Part shown: positions 2,041 to 42,630 of the stretch, piece after piece | Position numbering within the stretch: the first letter of the stretch is position 1 | Layout: every line of letters begins with the position of its first letter | Source of the DNA: Candidatus Jorgensenbacteria bacterium RIFCSPLOWO2_01_FULL_45_25b | Lineage (GTDB): Bacteria; Patescibacteriota; Minisyncoccia; UBA6257; GWB1-50-10 | Assembly: GCA_001781035.1 (NCBI GenBank) | Contig: MFKK01000008.1 | Location: 1-46,372, forward strand | Reading direction: 5' to 3' | Length of the DNA stretch: 46,372 nt | Made by a program: the position numbers and the translations under genes | Notes under the pieces: model-generated | Told to the model about the DNA's origin: nothing | What the model saw: only the letters and a program-made list of their open reading frames with translations | The model's database searches: none

Positions 2041-3720
2041 ATGGATTCGGGATTGTTTGATCTTGGCATTGTTTTTGTTCTCGCGGCGGCATTAGGGATC
2101 GGAGCCAGGCTTTTGAAACAGCCACTTATTTTGGCTTATCTCGCGGCGGGAGCTTTAATTGCTTATTTCAACGTCTTTCATATTGGAGAGAAGGATGTGT
2201 TTCTGGTTTTTTCAAAACTGGGAGTTATGTTTCTTCTTTTCCTTATCGGGCTTGAGATTAACTATTCGGCTTTGCGGGTGATTGGAAGGGTCTCTCTCAT
2301 ACTCGGTCTTTCGCAGATTGTTATTACCGCTGGTTTGGGATATCTCATCGCGTATTTTTTCGGGTTCGCTTTTCTTCCCGCGCTTTATATCGCAATCGCG
2401 CTCGCCTTTTCAAGCACTATTATTGTTTTGAAACTGCTTTCGGAGAAAAGGGAGGAGCATAGCTTGTACGGGCGCATCAGTATCGGATTTCTTTTGGTTC
2501 AGGATTTTGTCGCGATTTTGCTTTTAGTTGTTCTTGCCGGCGCGCAACAATCCGGCGGTTTTTCTTTTTGGAGAATGCTTCTTACGATTATTGAGGGGGC
2601 GGCGCTTTTTAGCGCGATGCTTTTTTTAGGAAGGAGAGTGTTTCCCGCGCTTTTTAACGTCATCGCGCGATCGCACGAGCTTTTGTTTTTGGTCAGTTTG
2701 GCGTGGATGTTTCTTATGGTTTCTTTTGTGCAGAGGCTTGGGTTTTCAATTGAGATAGGTGGTTTTCTCGCGGGACTCGCGCTTGCTAATTCTTCGGAGA
2801 ATTTTCAGATCGCGGGGAGGGTGCGTCCGCTTCGAGACTTCTTTATTCTCGTGTTTTTTGTGATTCTAGGCTCTTCTCTTTTGGCCGCGAATATATCGGG
2901 CATTATTCTGCCTGTTGTCGTTTTTTCGCTTTTTGTTCTTGTTGGCAACCCCCTTATCGTGCTTATCATCATGGCAATTCTGGGGTATCGGAAGAGGACG
3001 AGTTTTTTTACCGGACTCACGGTCGCGCAGATTTCGGAGTTTAGTTTGATTTTAATCGCTTTGGGGTTGCAGATGGGGCATATTGACGAGCGGGTTTCCG
3101 CGCTTGTTACCGCGGTTGCCGTTATCACCATTACTCTTTCCACCTATCTTATGTTGTATGCCGACAAATTTTTCTTGTATCTTTTGCCGTTTCTCTCGTT
3201 TTTTGAGAGAAAGCGGCTTACGGAAAAGGACGCTCCCGGCGGAATTTCAAAAAGCGTTGTATTGGTTGGATGCCATCGGATTGGACAGAGTATCGCGTTT
3301 AGCTTGCCCAAAGAGGAACTTTTGGTTGTTGATTTTGACCCCGATATCGCTCATGAGATGAAGAAGCACGGATTTGATTATCTCATGGGCGATATTTCCG
3401 ATCCCGAGACGTTTGACAGAATTGATATGACGGACGTTTGTTTGTTTATTTCTACCAGCCCCAATTTGGAAGATAATCTCGCGATCCTTTCTTTTTTTCG
3501 GAGTTTTTCTTCGCGTCCCCGTACGGTTCTTCGCGCCGAGAGCGAGGAGGACGCGGAGGTTTTGTATAAAGAGGGGGCGGATTATGTTATATTGCCGCAC
3601 TTTACCGCCGGGCAGTATTTTGGGAAGACCATTCTTGTTGACCCCGAAATGAAGATTTTAGACCAGTTGCGGGAGCGGGACCTGGCGCTCTTGAGACGGG
3701 TGCGAGCCGGCACTTCCTGA
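2041..3720 (+). CDS. CPA2/Kef-type cation:proton antiporter with C-terminal TrkA-N (RCK) domain
   Basis: Many TM helices, LGVMFLLFLIGLE, FSSTIIVLKLL, LLVQD, QISEFS; C-terminal VLVGCHRIG Rossmann-like motif. Start chosen 7 nt after TATGAT (2028-2033). Confidence 0.9.
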   Translation: MDSGLFDLGIVFVLAAALGIGARLLKQPLILAYLAAGALIAYFNVFHIGEKDVFLVFSKLGVMFLLFLIGLEINYSALRVIGRVSLILGLSQIVITAGLGYLIAYFFGFAFLPALYIAIALAFSSTIIVLKLLSEKREEHSLYGRISIGFLLVQDFVAILLLVVLAGAQQSGGFSFWRMLLTIIEGAALFSAMLFLGRRVFPALFNVIARSHELLFLVSLAWMFLMVSFVQRLGFSIEIGGFLAGLALANSSENFQIAGRVRPLRDFFILVFFVILGSSLLAANISGIILPVVVFSLFVLVGNPLIVLIIMAILGYRKRTSFFTGLTVAQISEFSLILIALGLQMGHIDERVSALVTAVAVITITLSTYLMLYADKFFLYLLPFLSFFERKRLTEKDAPGGISKSVVLVGCHRIGQSIAFSLPKEELLVVDFDPDIAHEMKKHGFDYLMGDISDPETFDRIDMTDVCLFISTSPNLEDNLAILSFFRSFSSRPRTVLRAESEEDAEVLYKEGADYVILPHFTAGQYFGKTILVDPEMKILDQLRERDLALLRRVRAGTS

Positions 3721-31626: not shown

Positions 31627-32034
31627 ATGGAGCGAAAGAAATTTGTTATTCTTATCGCGGATGACAATCAGGATTTTTTGGATATTCTTATCGCGAAGCT
31701 TACCCGAGAGAAGTTTGACGTGCATACGGTTACGGACGGACGGGAGGCGATTGAGATGGCAAAAGAATTACGTCCCGACCTTCTTATTCTTGACCTTGAG
31801 ATGCCCGTTATGGGAGGAATGGAAGCGTTTTTTGAACTGCGAAAAGACTCGCGCTTCAGCAAGTTGAAGGTTGTGTTTATTACGACTCACGGGGATGACT
31901 CGGAGAAGACCGCGTGGGTGGACGACAAGTTCGCGCGGGAGGAGGGGATACGGGATTTTATCCGCAAGACCGACGACCTTGATTCAATCGTGAAACAAAT
32001 TTTGCGAATATTACGTGTTCCCGCGGGAGCATAA
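31627..32034 (+). CDS. Single-domain response regulator
   Basis: IADDN, PDLLILDLEMP, FITT, K. Confidence 0.92.
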   Translation: MERKKFVILIADDNQDFLDILIAKLTREKFDVHTVTDGREAIEMAKELRPDLLILDLEMPVMGGMEAFFELRKDSRFSKLKVVFITTHGDDSEKTAWVDDKFAREEGIRDFIRKTDDLDSIVKQILRILRVPAGA

Positions 32035-32050
32035 TTTTTTTGTGTTTAAG

Positions 32051-33754
32051 ATGAGCTCTGCAACACCAAAGCAAAAAATTTTTATTGTTGAGGATAATCG
32101 CTTTCTCGCGATGCTTGTTTCCGAGAAGCTCCGCTCGGAAGGAATGGAAGTTATTACCTGTTTTGAGGGAGCGGATTGCGTGAAGAAGGCGGAGGAGATG
32201 AAACCGTCGCTTGTTCTTCTTGACCTTCTTTTGCCCGGTTCCATTGACGGGTTTGGAGTGCTTTCCAGATTGCGGAAGTCAAAGATTACTAAAGATGTTC
32301 CGGTTGTTGTTCTTACGAATCTTGAGGGAGGGGAGGATGTGGAGAAGGCGGTAAAGCTTAAGATCGGCGGGTATCTTGTGAAGGCGCATACCTCAACCGC
32401 TGAAATTGCCTCCCGGGTAAAGGACGTGCTGGAACATAAAGATAAGCTATTCCAACTTGCCGACGTTTCTTCTTCCCCATCTCCAACACAGGATAATGTG
32501 GAAGAAGCGCGTTCCAAGCTTGCTGTGGAGCGTTCTTTGGTACTGAAGGCTTCCATTGACAAGGCGCTTGTTAGACCGGAGGAACTTTCCATTATTACAC
32601 TTGTTGACGAGCTTGTTCAGTATGCTTTTTTCTCCCGCGCGTCGGATATCCATGTTGACCCGGAGGACGGGAAGATGCATATCCGATTTCGCGTTGACGG
32701 AGTGATGCGGGAGATGTTTTCATTTCAGAAAGAAATTCAGTCAGAGGTTATTACACGTATCAAGGTTCTTTCCGGTTTGCGAACGGATGAGCATCAGGCC
32801 GCGCAGGACGGGCGGTTTAAGGTTTCCATTGAAGATGTTGGGGATGTTGATGTTCGTGTTTCTATCGCCCCCACTTATTACGGAGAGAATTGCGTGATGC
32901 GTCTTTTAGCCGACCAATCCGAAGGATTTACGCTTGAGACGCTCGGGTTTTCCGGAAGCAATTTGAAGGTGGTGCATAAGGCGATTCGGAAGCCGTATGG
33001 CATGGTGCTTGCAACAGGCCCTACCGGTTCGGGAAAGACGACGACGCTTTACGCGATTCTCCGAAAACTAAATACTCCCGAAGTTTCGGTTATTACGATT
33101 GAGGACCCGATTGAGTATTCAATTAAGGGAATTGATCAGATTCAGGTTAATCCTCTCACGAATCTTACGTTCGCGGCGGGTTTGCGCTTTATTCTGCGAC
33201 AGGACCCCGATATTATTATGGTGGGAGAGATTCGGGATGATGAGACTGCGAATATCGCGATTAACGCGGCGATGACCGGACACTTAGTTTTGTCCACGCT
33301 TCATACCAATGACGCGGCGACGACTCTTCCGAGGCTTATAGATATGAAAATTGAGCCGTTTCTCGTCGCGACAACCGTGAACATCGCCATTAGCCAGCGC
33401 CTTGTCCGCACGATTTGTTCTTTTTGTCGCGTTCCAAAAAAACTTACGGATATTGAGTTTGAAAATCTCAAGGAGTTTATGCCGGATTCGATTTTGAAGG
33501 GAAAGAAATCGTTTTTTTATGGAAAGGGATGCGACCATTGCGGGGATTCCGGATATCGCGGGAGGGTCGGCATTCATGAAGTGATGGAGATAACGGAGGA
33601 GATTCGCAATCTTATCATGAAGCAGGCGAACGCGAATGATATCAAGGTCGTGGCAGTAAAAGCAGGGATGAAGACGCTTCTTGAGGACGGGTTTTCCAAG
33701 GCGATGGAGGGGATTACGACGATTGAGGAGGTTCTTCGGGTTTCAAGGGATTAG
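32051..33754 (+). CDS. Receiver domain fused to a PilB/GspE assembly ATPase
   Basis: N-terminal REC (IVEDN, LLDLLLP, LTN, K); ASDIH, QDGR, GPTGSGKT, TIEDPIE, LRQDPD, GHLVLSTLHTN, CxxC...CxxC. Confidence 0.93.
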   Translation: MSSATPKQKIFIVEDNRFLAMLVSEKLRSEGMEVITCFEGADCVKKAEEMKPSLVLLDLLLPGSIDGFGVLSRLRKSKITKDVPVVVLTNLEGGEDVEKAVKLKIGGYLVKAHTSTAEIASRVKDVLEHKDKLFQLADVSSSPSPTQDNVEEARSKLAVERSLVLKASIDKALVRPEELSIITLVDELVQYAFFSRASDIHVDPEDGKMHIRFRVDGVMREMFSFQKEIQSEVITRIKVLSGLRTDEHQAAQDGRFKVSIEDVGDVDVRVSIAPTYYGENCVMRLLADQSEGFTLETLGFSGSNLKVVHKAIRKPYGMVLATGPTGSGKTTTLYAILRKLNTPEVSVITIEDPIEYSIKGIDQIQVNPLTNLTFAAGLRFILRQDPDIIMVGEIRDDETANIAINAAMTGHLVLSTLHTNDAATTLPRLIDMKIEPFLVATTVNIAISQRLVRTICSFCRVPKKLTDIEFENLKEFMPDSILKGKKSFFYGKGCDHCGDSGYRGRVGIHEVMEITEEIRNLIMKQANANDIKVVAVKAGMKTLLEDGFSKAMEGITTIEEVLRVSRD

Positions 33755-33798
33755 AACATTAGTTGTAAGTTGAAAATTTTAAGTTGAAAGGAATACAT

Positions 33799-34848
33799 AT
33801 GTTGTTTTTATCGGTTCCGGTGCAGGAAAAAATTAATTTCGCGAGGCATTTGCATTTGACCGTAAAGAGCGGGCTCGCTCTCGTTGACGGCTTGAAGCTC
33901 GTGGAGAAGCAGACTTCTTCGGGTTCGCTTCGGAAGATTATTTCCCGTCTTGTCGCCGACCTTAACAGCGGAAAGTTTTTGTCGGAGGGACTTTCGCGGT
34001 ATCGGAGCGTGTTCGGCGATTTTTTTATCAGTATCGTCCAAGTTGGAGAGAAGAGCGGAAAGCTTTCGGAGAACCTTCTTCATCTTTCTCTGGAATTGCG
34101 AAAGAAAAAGGAGCTTCAATCAAAAATTGTTGGGGCGCTTGTGTACCCCATCATTATTTTTGTCGCTACGATTGGAATTACTATTTTTCTTGTTTTCTTT
34201 ATTCTTCCCAAAATTCTTCCGGTTCTGCAGGATTTGCATGTCGCGCTTCCGCTTAGCACTCGTATTCTTATTTTTATCGTCAATATGTCCACGCAATTTG
34301 GTTTGTACATATTGGGCGGAGGTATCATTCTTCTTATTTGCGTTCGAGCGCTTTTTCAGTTTTCTTTTGTACGATTCTTTTTTCATCGGATAGTTCTTTA
34401 TATTCCGATTGTTTCCGGTCTTACGCGGCGCGTTACGTTGGTTGATTTTTCCCGTTCATTCGGACTTCTTTTGCAAAGCGGAGTTTCTATCGTTGACGCG
34501 CTTACGATTTCCGCCGGTACGATTCGCAATCTCTATTATCGCCAGCTCATTCTTTTTTCCGTGGAACATGTTCGCAAGGGAGAACAGGTCGCTGATTATT
34601 TTGCGAAACATCAGTATCTTTTTCCCATTATGTTTTCCAATCTTTTGAAGATTGGGGAGAGTACCGGGCATCTTGAGTCTAATTTGTTTTACCTTTCGGA
34701 GTATTACGAGGGCGAGGTGGACGATAGTGTGCGAGGTCTTACCGCTATTATGGAACCTCTCTTACTTCTCTTTATGGGACTTATGGTTGGATTTGTCGCC
34801 ATCTCTATTATTTTGCCGATTTACAAAATTTCACAGCCGGCGGTATAG
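33799..34848 (+). CDS. pilC: Type IV pilus platform protein PilC/GspF
   Basis: Two T2SSF repeats: GEKSGKL...YP and GESTGHL...MEP. Confidence 0.9.
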   Translation: MLFLSVPVQEKINFARHLHLTVKSGLALVDGLKLVEKQTSSGSLRKIISRLVADLNSGKFLSEGLSRYRSVFGDFFISIVQVGEKSGKLSENLLHLSLELRKKKELQSKIVGALVYPIIIFVATIGITIFLVFFILPKILPVLQDLHVALPLSTRILIFIVNMSTQFGLYILGGGIILLICVRALFQFSFVRFFFHRIVLYIPIVSGLTRRVTLVDFSRSFGLLLQSGVSIVDALTISAGTIRNLYYRQLILFSVEHVRKGEQVADYFAKHQYLFPIMFSNLLKIGESTGHLESNLFYLSEYYEGEVDDSVRGLTAIMEPLLLLFMGLMVGFVAISIILPIYKISQPAV

Positions 34849-34897
34849 CTTATAGATTAAAATATTTTTCATAATTTATAGACTTTTTCAAGATTTA
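34845..34897 (+). repeat. 53-bp direct repeat, copy 1 (upstream of pilin 34902)
   Basis: Matches 37013-37065 with one mismatch. Confidence 0.9.
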
Positions 34898-34901
34898 CGT
34901 T

Positions 34902-35522
34902 ATGCGTCTACAAGCTAAAAGCTACAAGCTAAAAGCTAAAGCCCCGTTAGAGAGCGTTGTTGCTCACAATGGGAACAAAAGCCAAGCAAGAGAGCGCGGG
35001 GCTTTGTCCTCTCTAACGGGGCTCACCCCGTTAGAGAGCGTTGTTGCTCACAATGGGAACAAAAGCCAAGCAAGAGAGCGCGGGGCTTTGTCCTCTCTAA
35101 CGGGGTTTACGCTTATTGAGGTTCTTCTTGCTATGGGAATATTCGGGCTTTTGTTTGGACTTGGAGTTCCCTCTGTTTACCGGATGTATCGCGGATTTGT
35201 TTTTTCATCCGAAGTTCAGAAGTTCGCGGACGCTCTTCGGACGGCGGAGGCGCGCTCGTTTACGAATCAGTTTGGCAAGTCGCACGGGATTTTTATTCAA
35301 TCAGACTCTTTTTTTGTTTTTCAGGGCGGTTCGTTTGTAAGCCGTGATGTTCAATATGATGAAACGTACGCGCGAGCGGATGGCATTTCTGTTTCGGGAC
35401 CGCAGGAGATTGTTTTTTCGCAATTTTCAGGCGCTCCGTCTCTTTCGGGCGTGTGGATTTTTAGCAACGAGGCCGTTTCTTCAACACTTTCCTTAAATTC
35501 GCAGGGCGCGCTTTCGTGGTGA
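34902..35522 (+). CDS. Type IV pilin-like protein with repeat-expanded leader
   Basis: G|FTLIEVLLAM class III signal at residue ~68, preceded by two in-frame 28-codon repeats. Confidence 0.85.
   Translation: MRLQAKSYKLKAKAPLESVVAHNGNKSQARERGALSSLTGLTPLESVVAHNGNKSQARERGALSSLTGFTLIEVLLAMGIFGLLFGLGVPSVYRMYRGFVFSSEVQKFADALRTAEARSFTNQFGKSHGIFIQSDSFFVFQGGSFVSRDVQYDETYARADGISVSGPQEIVFSQFSGAPSLSGVWIFSNEAVSSTLSLNSQGALSW
34942..35105. mobile_element. Two tandem copies of an 80-bp MITE-like element
   Basis: 34942-35021 and 35026-35105 are identical; 13-bp terminal inverted repeats CCCCGTTAGAGAG/CTCTCTAACGGGG; period 84. Confidence 0.8.
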
Positions 35523-35531
35523 GCTTTTGTT

Positions 35532-37016
35532 ATGCTTTCCTTTTTTAATAAACAATCTTTTTGCCGTGATTCTTCTTCCGGGCAGGTTCTCATGGAAATT
35601 CTTGTCGGAATTTCTCTTTTGGTTTTGGGCGCGGGACTTGGTTTTACGCTCATGAGCGGAGCCCGAAGCGTTCTTAAGGACAGGACGCAGAGCGTTTCGG
35701 CTAATTATTTGGCTGACGAGGGGGCGCGCGCGGCCAAATCGATTCTTCTTGGTAATTGGAGTTCGGTTGGTGACGGGACGCATGGTCTTTTGTATTCCGA
35801 TGGAATTTGGAGTTTTTCGGGAAGCCAGGACGTTCAGGATGTTTTTACCAGAACGATTCAGGTTACGAGTATTGATGAGAATAAGAAGGAGGCTGTGGCG
35901 CGAGTTTCTTGGATGGCTGACCAAGGAAGAGGTGTGTCTGTTGAATATCCCACGGTTGTTACCAATTGGAGCGAGGTTTTGGGCGGAGGCGGAGGAGCCG
36001 GAGGTGGCGGAGGAAGTGGAGGAGGAGGAACAAGCGGAGAGGATGTGTGCGGAATTGTTTCGGGAAATTGGAGCCGTCCGCGCGTTATCGCGAGCGTTGA
36101 CCTCGGCTCCGGAAGAAGCGGTACCGATATCGCTTACCGAAACCAGCTGTTGTATGTTTCAAGCGTTGCCTCTACCGCATCAAAAAAGGATTTTTCCATT
36201 TTTGATGTTTCAAGTTCCACTTATCCTCGGTTGCTCGGAGAGGTTGATACGGGAGGAGGAATCAACGAGTTTGTGATAAACGGCAATTACGTCTACGCGG
36301 TTTCTTCCGATAATTCCAAAGAATTTGTCGTGATAGATGTTTCCAGTTCAACGAATCCTTTGATGATCGCGAGCAAGGATTTAGACGGTGGCGCTGACGG
36401 GAATTCGGTCGCGTATTACGGAGGGTACGCGATTGTGGGGCGGCCACATTCTTCCTCAAAAGAGCTTGTGGTTTTGAATGTTACATCTTCCACTTCGCCT
36501 GTTGTTTCCAATGAAGTTCATATTAGCGATTCTGTTTTAAACATATACGCGTTTCAGGAGAAGCTTTATTATAGTTATTATGACGTGACGGACGATATTG
36601 GAATTCGGAGTCTCGCGAGTCTTCCTTCCATTCCGTTTTTGGGAAGTTGGGACGTTGGCGAGGACGATATCGGCTCTTTTTTTGCCGAATCGTCTTCCGC
36701 GTTTTCTTTGGGGGGCGTATTTGGTGAGTTGGCGTATTACGGCAATGGGTCAAGCGACGATTCTTTTTCTCTTTTTGACAGTTTTGACGCGGATGGAGAA
36801 GTGAACGACTTGATTGCTTCGGGAGATTATATATTTCTCGCGACATCGGACGCTTCTTCCGAATTTCAGGTTGTGAACAAGAACAATCCCAGCTCTCTTT
36901 CTCTCCTTGGTTTTTTGAATCTTCCCCAAGAGGCGACCGGTATTACTTGCGCGGATAACAAGATATTTCTTTCCCTAAGAAGCAATGATTCGGTGAGAAT
37001 TATCGGACCGGAATAG
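35532..37016 (+). CDS. Minor pilin-like protein with Gly-rich linker and LVIVD-like beta-propeller (putative tip adhesin)
   Basis: G|QVLMEILV, poly-Gly linker, repeated FSIFDVSS/FVVIDVSS/LVVLNVTS..P units. Confidence 0.75.
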   Translation: MLSFFNKQSFCRDSSSGQVLMEILVGISLLVLGAGLGFTLMSGARSVLKDRTQSVSANYLADEGARAAKSILLGNWSSVGDGTHGLLYSDGIWSFSGSQDVQDVFTRTIQVTSIDENKKEAVARVSWMADQGRGVSVEYPTVVTNWSEVLGGGGGAGGGGGSGGGGTSGEDVCGIVSGNWSRPRVIASVDLGSGRSGTDIAYRNQLLYVSSVASTASKKDFSIFDVSSSTYPRLLGEVDTGGGINEFVINGNYVYAVSSDNSKEFVVIDVSSSTNPLMIASKDLDGGADGNSVAYYGGYAIVGRPHSSSKELVVLNVTSSTSPVVSNEVHISDSVLNIYAFQEKLYYSYYDVTDDIGIRSLASLPSIPFLGSWDVGEDDIGSFFAESSSAFSLGGVFGELAYYGNGSSDDSFSLFDSFDADGEVNDLIASGDYIFLATSDASSEFQVVNKNNPSSLSLLGFLNLPQEATGITCADNKIFLSLRSNDSVRIIGPE

Positions 37017-37065
37017 CTTATAGATTAAAATAATTTTCATAATTTATAGACTTTTTCAAGATTTA
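37013..37065 (+). repeat. 53-bp direct repeat, copy 2 (upstream of pilin 37065)
   Basis: Matches 34845-34897 with one mismatch. Confidence 0.9.
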
Positions 37066-37601
37066 TGCGTTTACAAACTAAAAAGGGGATTTACCCAGCA
37101 CCACTTTTTAACGTAAAAAGTGGTGCTGGGTTTACTCTCATTGAGGTTCTTTTGTACGCGGCTCTGCTCTCGCTCTTTTTCGGGTTTTCAATTGTTTCAA
37201 CGATTAATATTTTTTCCATGAACCGATTGTTTCTTGAGCGCACCGAAGTGTTGCAGAATCAGGAATTTATTCGGCAGAAAATTAGATGGGCATTTCATCA
37301 GGCGCGAGAGATTTCCGTACCCTCTCCAAACTTAAGTTCAGCAACGAATCTCACCCTTACCGCTTATGATTCTTCATTGAACCCGATTTCATTTTCTTTT
37401 TCATCCAGCAGTCTCTTGCTCTCGCTTTCAGGCGGAGAGCTTGTTCCTTTAGAGGGAGGCAGAGTTCGGGTTGCCAGTTTTCTCGCGGACCATCGGAGTT
37501 CCAGTCAGACCTCCTCAACGCTTATGGTTACAATCGGTTTGCAAAGCAGGCAAGACCCTCGTGTTTCTTCAACAGTTGTTTATTCACTTTCCTTTCCATG
37601 A
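37065..37601 (+). CDS. Type IV pilin-like protein
   Basis: G|FTLIEVLLY; leader contains a 37-bp hairpin. Confidence 0.85.
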   Translation: MRLQTKKGIYPAPLFNVKSGAGFTLIEVLLYAALLSLFFGFSIVSTINIFSMNRLFLERTEVLQNQEFIRQKIRWAFHQAREISVPSPNLSSATNLTLTAYDSSLNPISFSFSSSSLLLSLSGGELVPLEGGRVRVASFLADHRSSSQTSSTLMVTIGLQSRQDPRVSSTVVYSLSFP

Positions 37602-37975
37602 AAAAAGAAGAAGGATATATCGCGATTACAAGCGCTATTATTGTTTCCCTACTTCTTTTGGGTTCGGCGCTTTTGATTAGTTCCGGAAATTTTTCCGGAT
37701 ACGCGAATTCCCAGCTGTTTGAGGCAAAGGAGATAGGATATTCGGTTTCGGAGGGTTGCGTGAATTATGTCCGTTTGAAACTTTCTTCCGGCGCGTACGC
37801 CGGAGGAGAGACGATTTCCATTTCTTCTTATTCGTGTATTATTTCTTCAGTTCAGGATCAGGGGACGACCTATCTTTTTCAGGTTAGCGTGACGGTGAGA
37901 AATACGATGACGAATTTGAGGATTGTCTTAAATAAACTGAATCTTTCCATTGGAGAATGGAGGGAGATTCCATAG
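37598..37975 (+). CDS. PilX-like minor pilin
   Basis: MKKEEG|YIAITSAIIV, no Glu5, SEGCV. Confidence 0.7.
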   Translation: MKKEEGYIAITSAIIVSLLLLGSALLISSGNFSGYANSQLFEAKEIGYSVSEGCVNYVRLKLSSGAYAGGETISISSYSCIISSVQDQGTTYLFQVSVTVRNTMTNLRIVLNKLNLSIGEWREIP

Positions 37976-38002
37976 AACAAATGCCCACTAATCTACACCC
38001 AC

Positions 38003-38102
38003 CAAACTACAAATTATCCGAATCTACAAATTACTACGAATATGCGTAACACACATCACTTTCATTTGAAGAAGTTCGTAGATTCGGATTGTTTTGTAGT
38101 TT
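38003..38102. repeat. CTACGAA/ATCCGAATCTAC fold-back element overlapping the pilin start
   Basis: AAACTACAAA..ATCCGAATCTAC pairs with GTAGATTCGGAT..TTTGTAGTTT; the left arm is shared with 42581-42630 and 42941-42997. Confidence 0.7.
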
Positions 38103-38638
38103 CGGGGGCATCAGGGTTTACCCCGTTAGAGAGCGTTGTTGCTCACAATGGGAACAAAAGTCATGCAAGAGAGCGCGGGGCTTTGTCCTCTCTAACGGGG
38201 TTTACGCTTATAGAGGTTTGCATTACGGTCGGGCTTGTTGCTCTTCTTTCGGTTTCTTTGTTTTTTATTGTGAGTCCCGCAAAAAGATTCGCGGACGCGC
38301 GCAATCAGAAACGTTTATCGGATGTGAATGCCGTATTGAATGCCGTTAGTCAGAATATCGGAGATTATAAGGGTACGTTTTTTTGTCCTTCAGGACCTAT
38401 TCCGATCGCAACCTCTACGCGGATGGCTTCCGGGGCGGGGAGTTATAATATTTTTCCCTGTATTTATCCCGCGTATATCCAGCAGATTCCTTTTGACCCT
38501 CAAGTAATTGGAGCCCACTTTACGAGTATTTCCGACTACGACCTCGGGTATTTCATTGTTTTGAATACCGCGAATAATCGGGTTACTGTTTCCGCCCCAT
38601 TCGCGGAGGACGGGGCGAATATATTCGCGACTCGATAA
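38042..38638 (+). CDS. Type IV pilin-like protein with repeat-expanded leader
   Basis: G|FTLIEVCITV...ARNQKRLSD, IPFDP; leader includes the 80-bp element. Confidence 0.85.
   Translation: MRNTHHFHLKKFVDSDCFVVSGASGFTPLESVVAHNGNKSHARERGALSSLTGFTLIEVCITVGLVALLSVSLFFIVSPAKRFADARNQKRLSDVNAVLNAVSQNIGDYKGTFFCPSGPIPIATSTRMASGAGSYNIFPCIYPAYIQQIPFDPQVIGAHFTSISDYDLGYFIVLNTANNRVTVSAPFAEDGANIFATR
38121..38200. mobile_element. Third copy of the 80-bp MITE-like element
   Basis: Two substitutions relative to copies 1 and 2; flanked by TTTA on both sides. Confidence 0.8.
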
Positions 38639-38669: not shown

Positions 38670-38711
38670 GCGTGCCTCAAACTTTACCGTACGGTAAAGT
38701 TTGAGGCACGC
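38670..38711. repeat. Perfect 42-bp palindrome, left of the PaaX/Cas2-like gene
   Basis: GCGTGCCTCAAACTTTACCGT|ACGGTAAAGTTTGAGGCACGC. Confidence 0.92.
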
Positions 38712-38772: not shown

Positions 38773-39291
38773 ATGGGAAAAACATCCGTAGACGCAAAAC
38801 GTCATATGCGTGCGCTTGGCGAACTTTTTCGTGAAAGCAGAACCGTGAGCGATGAGGTTGTTCGAGCGTTTTTTGATGCGTATGAACATCGAAAGTATCT
38901 GAAGCAGAGCTTACGACGAATGATGTCGCAAGGTATTGTTCGTCGCAATGCTTCTTCTTATGTTCTTACTCGATTTGGTGTACGTTTTTTTCAGAAGCAG
39001 AAAGCTCAAGAATCTTTTTCGCCTGATCTGTGGGATGGGAAGTGGCGTATTATTAGTTTTGATGTTCCTGAGAAATATTGTGATCGCAGATATCGGCTTC
39101 GCGCGCTTCTCAAAGAATTTAATTTTTTTCCGCTTCAGAAAAGTGTATGGGTTTGTCCCGCGCATCTTTCTGAAAAATTGTGGAAACTGATTGTGGATGA
39201 GCGTCTTCATGCATATTGTAAGGTTATGCTTGTTCAGATTATTGAAGGAGATAAGAATTTGAGAAAGTATTTTAAGCTTTCACAGAAGTAA
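38773..39291 (+). CDS. PaaX-like wHTH plus Cas2/VapD-like ferredoxin-fold protein
   Basis: LRRMMSQG...YVLTRFG wing; WDGKWRIISFDVPE, R..LR..L..F, LQKSVWVCP. Confidence 0.82.
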   Translation: MGKTSVDAKRHMRALGELFRESRTVSDEVVRAFFDAYEHRKYLKQSLRRMMSQGIVRRNASSYVLTRFGVRFFQKQKAQESFSPDLWDGKWRIISFDVPEKYCDRRYRLRALLKEFNFFPLQKSVWVCPAHLSEKLWKLIVDERLHAYCKVMLVQIIEGDKNLRKYFKLSQK

Positions 39292-39311: not shown

Positions 39312-39355
39312 TAAGTGCCTCAAACTTTACCGTACGGTAAAGTTTGAGGCACTTA
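39312..39355. repeat. Perfect 44-bp palindrome, right of the PaaX/Cas2-like gene
   Basis: TAAGTGCCTCAAACTTTACCGT|ACGGTAAAGTTTGAGGCACTTA; 38-bp core identical to the left copy. Confidence 0.92.
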
Positions 39356-39391: not shown

Positions 39392-39590
39392 TGCTTGTAT
39401 TTTTGAATCTTGCTTGTTTTTGGATTCTGTTTGTATTTTTGGATTCTGCTTGTTTTTGAATCTTGCTTGTTTTTGAATCTTGCTTGTTTTTGAATCTTGC
39501 TTGTTTTTGGATTCTGCTTGTTTTTGGGCGCTGCTTCTTTTTGTTTTTGATTGTTACTTGTTTTTTTGATGCCGCTTGTTTTTGGATGTT
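39392..39590. repeat. 17-bp tandem repeat array, decaying rightwards
   Basis: TGCTTGTTTTTGAATCT and TGCTTGTTTTTGGATTC units, about 8 good copies to ~39527, then degenerate ones. Confidence 0.85.
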
Positions 39591-42580: not shown

Positions 42581-42630
42581 AACCGATGCGAAACTACGAA
42601 TTTATCCGAATCTACAAATAGCTACGAATA
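42581..42630. repeat. Dispersed CTACGAA-family repeat directly upstream of rplY
   Basis: AACCGATGCGAAACTACGAATTTATCCGAATCTAC matches 42941-42975 with one mismatch. Confidence 0.8.

Follow-up and report, generated by a model that had tools for sequence, protein, structure and literature searches.

A short inverted-repeat element at the prepilin cleavage site in a Candidatus Jorgensenbacteria genome and its relation to small GIY-YIG nuclease elements

Introduction

What brings an 80-nt inverted repeat to the processing site of pilin genes, in frame each time, and what allows it to stay there? This question is raised by three copies of such a repeat on a 46,372-nt contig of Candidatus Jorgensenbacteria bacterium RIFCSPLOWO2_01_FULL_45_25b (MFKK01000008.1, positions 1 to 46,372, forward strand; GCA_001781035.1), the whole of which is here called the window. 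The window is contig C8 of an assembly of 803,513 bp, which comprises 38 contigs and is 97.6% complete. The best explanation, to which we give a probability of about 0.7, is that the repeat is a miniature inverted-repeat transposable element (MITE) of a GIY-YIG-associated family, which inserts in the Phe-Thr codons of prepilin genes, rebuilds the G↓FT motif (the arrow marks the prepilin peptidase cut) and persists in the discarded leader.

An 80-nt element directly before the cleavage site of two pilins

Each copy in the window consists of CCCCGTTAGAGAG, 54 nt of interior and CTCTCTAACGGGG, 80 nt in all, with perfect 13-nt terminal inverted repeats (TIRs). The initial annotation placed all three directly before G↓FTLIE in two pilin genes (pilins 1 and 3; Table 1), and both a reading of the sequence and a repeat search agreed (family D1, 3 copies, 85-100% identity over 105 nt; perfect inverted arms of 13-15 nt, I13, I16 and I21). 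The three copies share one reading frame, PLESVVAHNGNKS(Q/H)ARERGALSSLTG, and each pilin insertion terminates in ACG GGG, followed by TTT ACG CTT AT(T/A) GAG, which is read as G↓FTLIE. As had been proposed, the right end of the element supplies Gly(-1), GGG being its last codon. Copy 3 has TTTA on both sides, and removal of 84 nt restores ...TCA GGG TTT ACG CTT ATA GAG, the codons of SGFTLIE, as can be read directly; with 80 nt plus the 4-nt duplication, each insertion amounts to the predicted 28 leader codons. The claim of TTTA flanks holds for copy 3 but fails for the tandem copies 1 and 2, which are split by CTCA rather than TTTA, and for the left side of copy 1, which is AAAG, with no matching TTTA there.

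In all three pilin genes of the window, G↓FTLIE is followed by ~20 hydrophobic residues, Gly(-1), Phe(+1) and Glu(+5) are present, and the mature parts are intact open reading frames (ORFs). The ORFs of pilins 1 and 3 match the prepilin N-terminal methylation motif (PF07963/TIGR02532) at or just under the cut-off. What is missing is the short basic leader: ~70, 22 and 53 residues precede Gly in pilins 1, 2 and 3. Removal of the elements would restore short leaders, although pilin 3 would keep 25 residues.

A search of the whole genome with nhmmer recovered 8 full copies (E <= 1e-20) and 1 partial copy of the 80-nt element, and three of its five loci are prepilin cleavage sites. On contig C21, at least three copies form an array, broken by an assembly gap (a run of N), directly before G↓FTLIE of a pilin and just 3' of a pilC gene. 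Both this array and the tandem array of the window have the CTCA spacer, and since this spacer is odd and non-duplicated, the two arrays must be related by descent, recombination or movement of a dimer and do not represent two independent events. The gene for a DUF4012 protein of 752 aa contains two further tandem copies, in frame and close to the N-terminus, with 70% identity to those of the window, and one copy lies 5' of a long ORF on contig C32. A motif scan detected 6 pilin-like N-termini and missed pilin 3, giving at least 7 in the genome; of the seven, three carry the 80-nt element, one carries another hairpin and three have no insertion.

The element family and its GIY-YIG nuclease

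The outer 9-10 nt of the element, CCCGTTAGA and TCTAACGGG, are common to a wider family, with 17 left-right pairs in this genome and 4-nt target duplications of TTTA, TGAT, TTCA, TGAA, CCTG, TTGA, TCAA and TGTA. Other short members lie in frame within FolD and a PF00144 (beta-lactamase family) protein, and intergenic members on contig C34 contain stops. Hairpins of ~26 nt consisting of the two termini only, with CAAG/CTTG flanks, were also observed (C4 20874-20903, C34 4780-4809, C3 957-986 and C13 1024-1053); with a CAAG duplication, they add 10 codons in frame in long ORFs of 781 and 494 aa.

Two full-length members, of 277 bp (contig C19) and 285 bp (contig C37, 19945-20229; L010 1478-1762), have the same termini and enclose the two best PF01541 matches of the genome. 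The C37 nuclease is intact, with 88 aa, PF01541 at residues 1-68 and no second domain above the cut-off; its best solved relative is the UPF0213 protein BH0048 (1zg2, E = 5.6e-10). The C19 nuclease gene contains one TGA. Its frame crosses the right inverted repeat as ...FLSLTG, the last three bases of the element forming a Gly codon, and the pilin-leader frame of the 80-nt copies is the nuclease frame of this right end. Both full-length members sit on host features. The C19 element lies on a start codon: the nuclease frame now begins with the host ATG, which is contained in the left duplication, while at the right end G+TGAT forms the nuclease TGA stop overlapping a rebuilt GTG start. For the C37 element, the insertion point is the 5' end of tRNA-Pro(TGG), whose first bases are the last five bases of the element; the tRNA is still called intact.

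Judged by these termini, the 80-nt repeat is a presumably non-autonomous, MITE-like member of a family whose 277-285-bp members encode only a GIY-YIG nuclease of ~88 aa. It shares with MITEs the TIRs, the target-site duplication, the small size, the lack of an enzyme gene and the multiple copies. The nuclease may mobilise the elements.

Distribution and recurrence at the prepilin cleavage site

The family was sampled across phyla by an exact-pattern scan of the termini with one genome per species, which returned at least 118 stretches from many candidate phyla radiation (CPR) lineages and some Omnitrophota, Planctomycetota and others; 80 loci with 82 copies were analysed. Among 60 relatives, 19 genomes contain 43 copies, and a reversed-pattern control gave 0 matches in 61 genomes. 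Perfect 4-nt duplications flank 53/82 copies of the cross-phylum sample (39 of these 53 being TNNA) and 29/43 copies of the relatives, compared with a chance expectation of 1/256 per copy, which bears out the initial view of a MITE-like mobile element with TIRs and a 4-nt duplication. In the cross-phylum sample and the relatives, respectively, 4 and 3 copies lie at the prepilin cleavage site, 20 and 10 at a junction forming an ORF start codon (~24% of sampled copies), 5 and 7 inside long ORFs, and 53 and 23 elsewhere, many of these being intergenic.

The GIY-YIG nuclease is present in 151/301 sampled genomes of the phylum (this genome included), often in multiple copies. Approximately 10 of 29 inspected nuclease loci have the same inverted repeats, 265-421 bp apart, leaving out two of 12 flagged pairs that are weak and lie away from the gene (L154 and L160). 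The 80-nt subfamily itself appears specific to this genome, as a BLAST search with the 80-mer against 60 relatives gave a single 22-nt partial match only; the element-encoded peptide, compared with proteins of 113-361 aa, matched the proteins of the window only. When 135 family copies (loci of other genomes plus this genome) were folded as single strands, the termini paired around two inner hairpins in 92/135, compared with 57/135 after shuffling of the interior, which hints at a conserved Y-shaped fold.

Outside this genome, 7 of 123-125 sampled copies lie at the prepilin cleavage site. They belong to different lineages and have entirely different interiors, the termini alone being shared; all seven read M-(basic)-G-F-(T/I)-PLE...SLTG-FT(L/M)(I/V)E. 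The initial annotation had regarded the G-F-T codons as a safe-harbour target, a view that would be refuted if copies were spread over TTTA sites without enrichment at pilins. The family is indeed spread widely, yet its 5-7% share at pilins is far above chance, given 9,343 TTTA sites in the 0.8-Mb genome and only a handful of pilin cleavage sites. Non-pilin TTTA insertions lack the upstream GG, and survival at a tolerant site together with a TNNA preference therefore explains the pilin excess better than recognition of G-F-T. What stands of the proposal is the recurrence at pilins, in three of five loci here and in seven external copies; the specific targeting does not, most copies being elsewhere. 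These data support the prepilin site as a recurrent landing or survival site, one of several niches rather than a dedicated target.

Reading frame and alternative explanations

All seven external pilin-site copies are open and a multiple of three in length, compared with a baseline of 31% among 232 orientation-instances of 116 non-pilin copies, an outcome expected ~3 times in 10,000 if the copies are independent. In the window, the frame has been kept despite a 14-nt duplication in pilin 1 and a 41+1-nt addition in pilin 2, and both ORFs are open. These frame statistics and the compensated 14-nt and 41-nt events provide evidence that reading through the elements probably matters.

One alternative is that the repeat has been retained for its usefulness: translation or export of individual pilins would be set by the hairpin(s), or by how many 84-nt units are present, as a means of tuning or phase variation. 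The predicted RNA of the 80-nt element, a long hairpin with two inner stem-loops, is in keeping with such a role, as it folds at -36.5 kcal/mol (z = -4.6; none of 200 shuffles was equally stable). A comparison of the element with Rfam yielded only sub-threshold chance matches to miRNA and snoRNA models and no known RNA family. Exact tandem arrays of 84-nt period in two pilins and the DUF4012 gene, the C21 array left as a run of N in the assembly, as a variable repeat would be, and element unitigs at 3-5 times the flanking depth in four metagenome runs also favor a useful role. However, most copies of the family are found away from pilins, in spacers and in genes unrelated to them, the interior of pilin-site copies is wholly different between genomes, and neither copy-number variants nor empty sites were seen in the assembled contigs of the four runs. 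Such a role is unlikely to account for the repeat.

It is quite unlikely, too, that the pilins have been disabled, by the insertions or in any case, and that the frame is open by accident, 84 being divisible by three and the reading frame deriving from the nuclease gene. The length is frame-neutral by construction, the leaders are much longer than usual, no prepilin peptidase gene was found in the assembly, and even among non-pilin copies the length is a multiple of three in 61/116 (53%). On the other hand, an accident does not readily yield the 7/7 external pilin-site copies, nor does decay explain why the mature parts are intact and why the nearby frame shifts (a duplication of 14 nt and a hairpin insertion of 41 nt) have been compensated, whereas the intergenic family copies on C34 do contain stops.

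Translation probably starts at the upstream ATG. A 57-nt region upstream of pilins 1 and 2 (34841-34897 and 37009-37065) is 96% identical and looks like a duplicated promoter or 5' leader; both ORFs begin ATG CGT YTA CAA (MRLQ), and the conservation of this region before both MRLQ starts supports the two ATGs as starts. Upstream of the element in pilin 3, a further inverted-repeat element with 31-nt arms (I2/I18) spans 37998-38108, an interval that includes the presumed start codon (ATG 38042) and the beginning of the leader; its 16-nt core has 9 occurrences genome-wide, one of them at window position 42604, and summed contig depth over it rises 3-5-fold in four metagenome runs. An internal start at the element's in-frame TTG, five codons ahead of Gly, which would give the short leader MSSLTG and leave the rest of the element as 5' untranslated region, is very unlikely: the right end does read TTG TCC TCT CTA ACG GGG with a purine-rich AGAGAG 9 nt upstream, and one copy in a relative has an internal Met followed by basic residues (MHRRKKSLTG), but free length and upstream stops would then be expected, whereas all 7 external copies and all pilin-site copies of this genome are open from a canonical upstream M-basic-G-F leader, the TTG lies within the 3' arm of the hairpin and MSSLTG has no basic residue.

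A second hairpin family in the middle pilin and nuclease-prepilin fusions

Pilin 2, located between pilins 1 and 3, carries a different hairpin at the same codons as the 80-nt element in its neighbors, read before FTLIE as given in Table 1. Although the repeat offset is 41 nt, one extra base brings the addition to 42 nt and keeps the frame. This 37-nt hairpin has a single copy in the genome, and in the same metagenomes it is reached by contigs from other organisms; its 17-nt arm was found in at least 119 metagenome stretches. Elements of this second family measure 34-116 nt and 279-316 nt and have TNNA duplications, and the long ones encode an 82-aa GIY-YIG protein. Two of the loci passed the pilin test (L240 and L272), and a third is cut by the contig end after GFTL (L265). 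In one metagenome contig (L276; L287 has the same flanks), the TTTA of a pilin with MSTKKG↓FTILE is occupied by a full-length element, and the nuclease continues in frame as ...KKRAGILKSGAG↓FTILELM, such that one ORF (2179-2820, minus strand) matches both PF01541 and PF07963. Another in-frame GIY-YIG nuclease-prepilin fusion is found in the metagenome contig L272 (5367-6263, plus strand), and the two share the pattern GIY-YIG-...KSGAG↓FT(I/F)(L/I)E. One candidate, L152, which had been considered a nuclease behind a G-F-T leader, was rejected as a start-codon insertion with stops before it.

As the in-frame nuclease-prepilin fusions of this sister family occur in two metagenome contigs, a tentative extension, whose odds we place below even, is that these elements form an undescribed class of minimal transposon (~280 bp, encoding only a GIY-YIG protein of ~88 aa), in which a full-length element in a pilin gene would yield a nuclease-prepilin polyprotein split by prepilin peptidase. 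The Gly codon would then be the last codon of the nuclease as well as the last three bases of the element, and the 4-nt duplication would complete the host feature, TGAx giving a stop that overlaps the rebuilt host start and TTYA giving the Phe-Thr of the class III signal. Cleavage would free the nuclease on the cytoplasmic side and leave an unchanged pilin in the membrane, and the 80-nt copies of the window would be decayed remnants keeping the same trick.

Other features of the window

Table 1. Positions of the elements, their target sites and the pilus genes in the window
Feature	Positions	Strand	Description
pilB, T2SSE ATPase	32015-33754	+	N-terminal response-regulator receiver domain
pilC, T2SSF	33784-34848	+	directly upstream of pilin 1
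Prepilin gene 1	34902-35522	+	206 aa; ~70 aa precede G↓FTLIE, made up of leader MRLQAKSYKLKAKA and 2 x 28 element codons
14-nt tandem duplication in pilin-1 leader	34908-34935	+	CTACAAGCTAAAAG x2; frame-shifting alone, yet ORF open
Element copy 1	34942-35021	+	80 nt, read as PLESVVAHNGNKSQARERGALSSLTG within pilin-1 leader
Spacer CTCA between tandem copies 1 and 2	35022-35025	+	period 84 nt
Element copy 2	35026-35105	+	final codon GGG (35103-35105) = Gly(-1) of pilin 1
TTTA right of tandem array	35106-35109	+	Phe codon + first base of Thr
Prepilin gene 2	37065-37601	+	178 aa; leader MRLQTKKG[IYPAPLFNVKSGAG]FTLIE; PF07963/TIGR02532 at or near cut-off
Perfect hairpin, second family	37094-37130	+	37 nt, 17-nt arms (I11); TTTA at 37090-37093 and 37131-37134; last codons KSGAG
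Prepilin gene 3	38042-38638	+	198 aa; G↓FTLIE preceded by ~53 aa, counted from ATG 38042 as presumed start
Left TTTA target-site duplication, copy 3	38117-38120	+	
Element copy 3	38121-38200	+	final codon GGG = Gly(-1) of pilin 3
Right TTTA target-site duplication, copy 3	38201-38204	+	

Several other repeats and genes lie near the pilins. Between pilins 1 and 2, a 494-aa protein (35532-37016) contains LVIVD beta-propeller repeats and a Gly-rich run (GGGGAGGGGGSGGGG), within which contigs from one sequencing run have a 3-nt deletion at 35997. Identical 38-nt perfect palindromes at 38672-38709 and 39315-39352, with no other copy in the genome, flank an ORF of 172 aa (38773-39291) in which a PaaX central Cas2-like domain was detected; the arrangement might represent a small cassette or, alternatively, a pair of operator sites. 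At 39400-39500, 17-nt tandem units (TTTTTGAATCTTGCTTG-like) immediately precede the next gene.

Proposed mechanism and its weak points

Taken together, the observed anatomy, copies, duplications, nuclease-TIR link, pilin-site recurrence and frame statistics fit the following course of events. Insertion would duplicate 4 nt, usually TNNA, and the prepilin Phe-Thr codons, TT(T/C) ACN, contain such a target. With the left copy of the duplication, the original leader would be preserved up to G-F; the element would follow, read as T/I-P-L-E...S-L-T-G, and the right copy would restore F-T, with Gly(-1) provided by the last codon of the element, which would still be Gly with any outer base. Because the 84 nt would be read as 28 stop-free codons, the frame would be kept and G(-1)-F(+1)-T(+2) remade before an unchanged mature pilin. 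Prepilin peptidase would cut after Gly(-1), adjoining the hydrophobic segment, and release the same mature pilin as before. The element would fit pilins because its TNNA preference is met by the TTYA of Phe-Thr and its terminus ends in a Gly codon, and its copies would survive there because the leader is normally removed by the peptidase. The same logic may apply to the other niches, where a TGAx duplication would give a stop and a rebuilt start codon, and once to a tRNA 5' end.

Several points weigh against this explanation. The explanation presumes that a GIY-YIG nuclease can carry out transposition with target duplication. An 84-nt insertion is frame-neutral, and the open frame would be inherited from the 3' end of the nuclease, which makes the in-frame copies of this genome weak evidence of selection. 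Leaders of ~53, ~70 and at least 94 aa exceed that of any characterised prepilin known to us, and the in-frame TTG within the element could serve as an internal start, giving MSSLTG↓FTLIE. No Peptidase_A24 or A24_N gene (PF01478 and PF06750, E up to 10) was found in the assembly, nor did tblastn with PilD of four relatives find a match in it, although the gene may lie outside this draft of 38 contigs. The prepilin peptidase gene is present in 38/40 relatives, often beside pilC, and the present genome, lacking a match, has two pilC loci besides its pilin-like genes. Processing in this organism is argued from the presence of the gene in the relatives, and host cleavage of the long leaders, with removal of the element, is predicted on that basis.

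The check for empty sites proposed in the initial annotation was run with pilin proteins, metagenome contigs and a flank scan, and none was obtained. Mature pilin 1, compared with proteins of 113-361 aa, matched the proteins of the window only, which gave no ortholog with an empty site. No contig bridged an empty site in four metagenome runs, searched as Logan contigs, which break at repeats; the four joints listed in these contigs have sides of 20-30 nt and connect repeated pilin 5' ends. No match was obtained when metagenomes were scanned for the 24 nt to the left of copy 3, and among 15 sequencing runs containing the organism no RNA run was listed.

If the proposed mechanism is correct, this locus would clearly illustrate how a selfish element can persist in essential-looking genes, within the part of the protein that is discarded, where its own end rebuilds the processing site. 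It would also link in-frame palindromic repeats of the type known from Rickettsia to a candidate enzyme, the single-domain GIY-YIG nuclease, and suggest that CPR genomes commonly contain an autonomous DNA element of very small size, considering how often the nuclease was found in the sample. Predictions on the leader length tolerated by prepilin peptidases would follow. For annotation, it would explain odd 'leaders' of 50-100 residues, missed pilins, and anomalies at start codons and tRNA ends in ultrasmall bacteria.

Comparison with known systems

Type IVb prepilins have long class III leaders (~15-30 aa) that are still processed after Gly and are not mobile-element sequence. By comparison, the leaders described here measure 53 to at least 94 aa and are made of repeat units, and no report of repeats in prepilin leaders was found in the literature. 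REPs are extragenic and are not known to make a target duplication. The pairing of REP/BIME repeats with an IS200/IS605-like RAYT, as treated in the discussion of PMC11893778, resembles the present family in that a hairpin repeat is paired with a small enzyme acting on single-stranded DNA hairpins, but the RAYT enzyme has an HUH fold instead of GIY-YIG. Classical bacterial MITEs (such as Correia, ERIC and BOX; PMC10969869) share TIRs, duplication, small size, the lack of an enzyme gene, many copies and occasional in-frame fusions with the present family. The difference is that the presumed autonomous partner here is a ~280-bp unit with an 88-aa nuclease only, rather than an insertion sequence (IS) with a DDE or serine transposase. 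The words pilin, signal peptide and GIY-YIG have 0 occurrences each in that review, and a literature search found no bacterial GIY-YIG elements with TIRs and target duplication, although the Ssn homolog and repeat lists, held in supplements that the search did not cover, might include CPR members.

In size and layout, the nuclease is comparable to Ssn, the single-domain GIY-YIG nucleases of ~90 aa that act on single-stranded DNA and are associated with NTS/SRM hairpin repeats (Chenal et al. 2025, PMC11893778), whereas its best solved relative is UPF0213 BH0048. With 88 aa and one domain, it agrees with the ~90-100 aa of single-domain GIY-YIG proteins of the Ssn type. In both systems, a small GIY-YIG gene lies between its own repeats and many repeat copies lack the gene (PMC11893778), a repeat-gene-repeat layout that the authors themselves describe as IS-like. 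However, the SRM degenerate motif, in the form published in PMC11893778, had 2 matches genome-wide and 0 in the four regions tested, which comprised the two full-length elements, each with 150-nt flanks, and the MITE copies. Here the flanking repeats form an inverted pair and are accompanied by a target duplication, unlike the local hairpins described for Ssn, and the NTS repeats are rarely found inside genes (2%, PMC11893778), whereas the present family is in frame in several.

In behavior, the family is closest to the Rickettsia palindromic elements (RPEs; PMC10969869), which are likewise short palindromes inserted in frame in protein genes and read as an extra peptide. The likeness extends to the occurrence of several subfamilies within one small genome, the hosts here being pilins, FolD, a PF00144 beta-lactamase-family protein and a DUF4012 protein. 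RPEs are ~150 bp long and confined to Rickettsia, and the review's passages on them describe no enzyme partner (PMC10969869; Ogata et al. 2000 cited therein). In contrast, the present family measures 26-97 nt in its MITE form, has a clear 4-nt target duplication and shares its termini with GIY-YIG elements of ~280 bp. Unlike RPEs as portrayed there, it recurs at features that are rebuilt by the insertion itself, namely the prepilin cleavage site, start codons and a tRNA 5' end.

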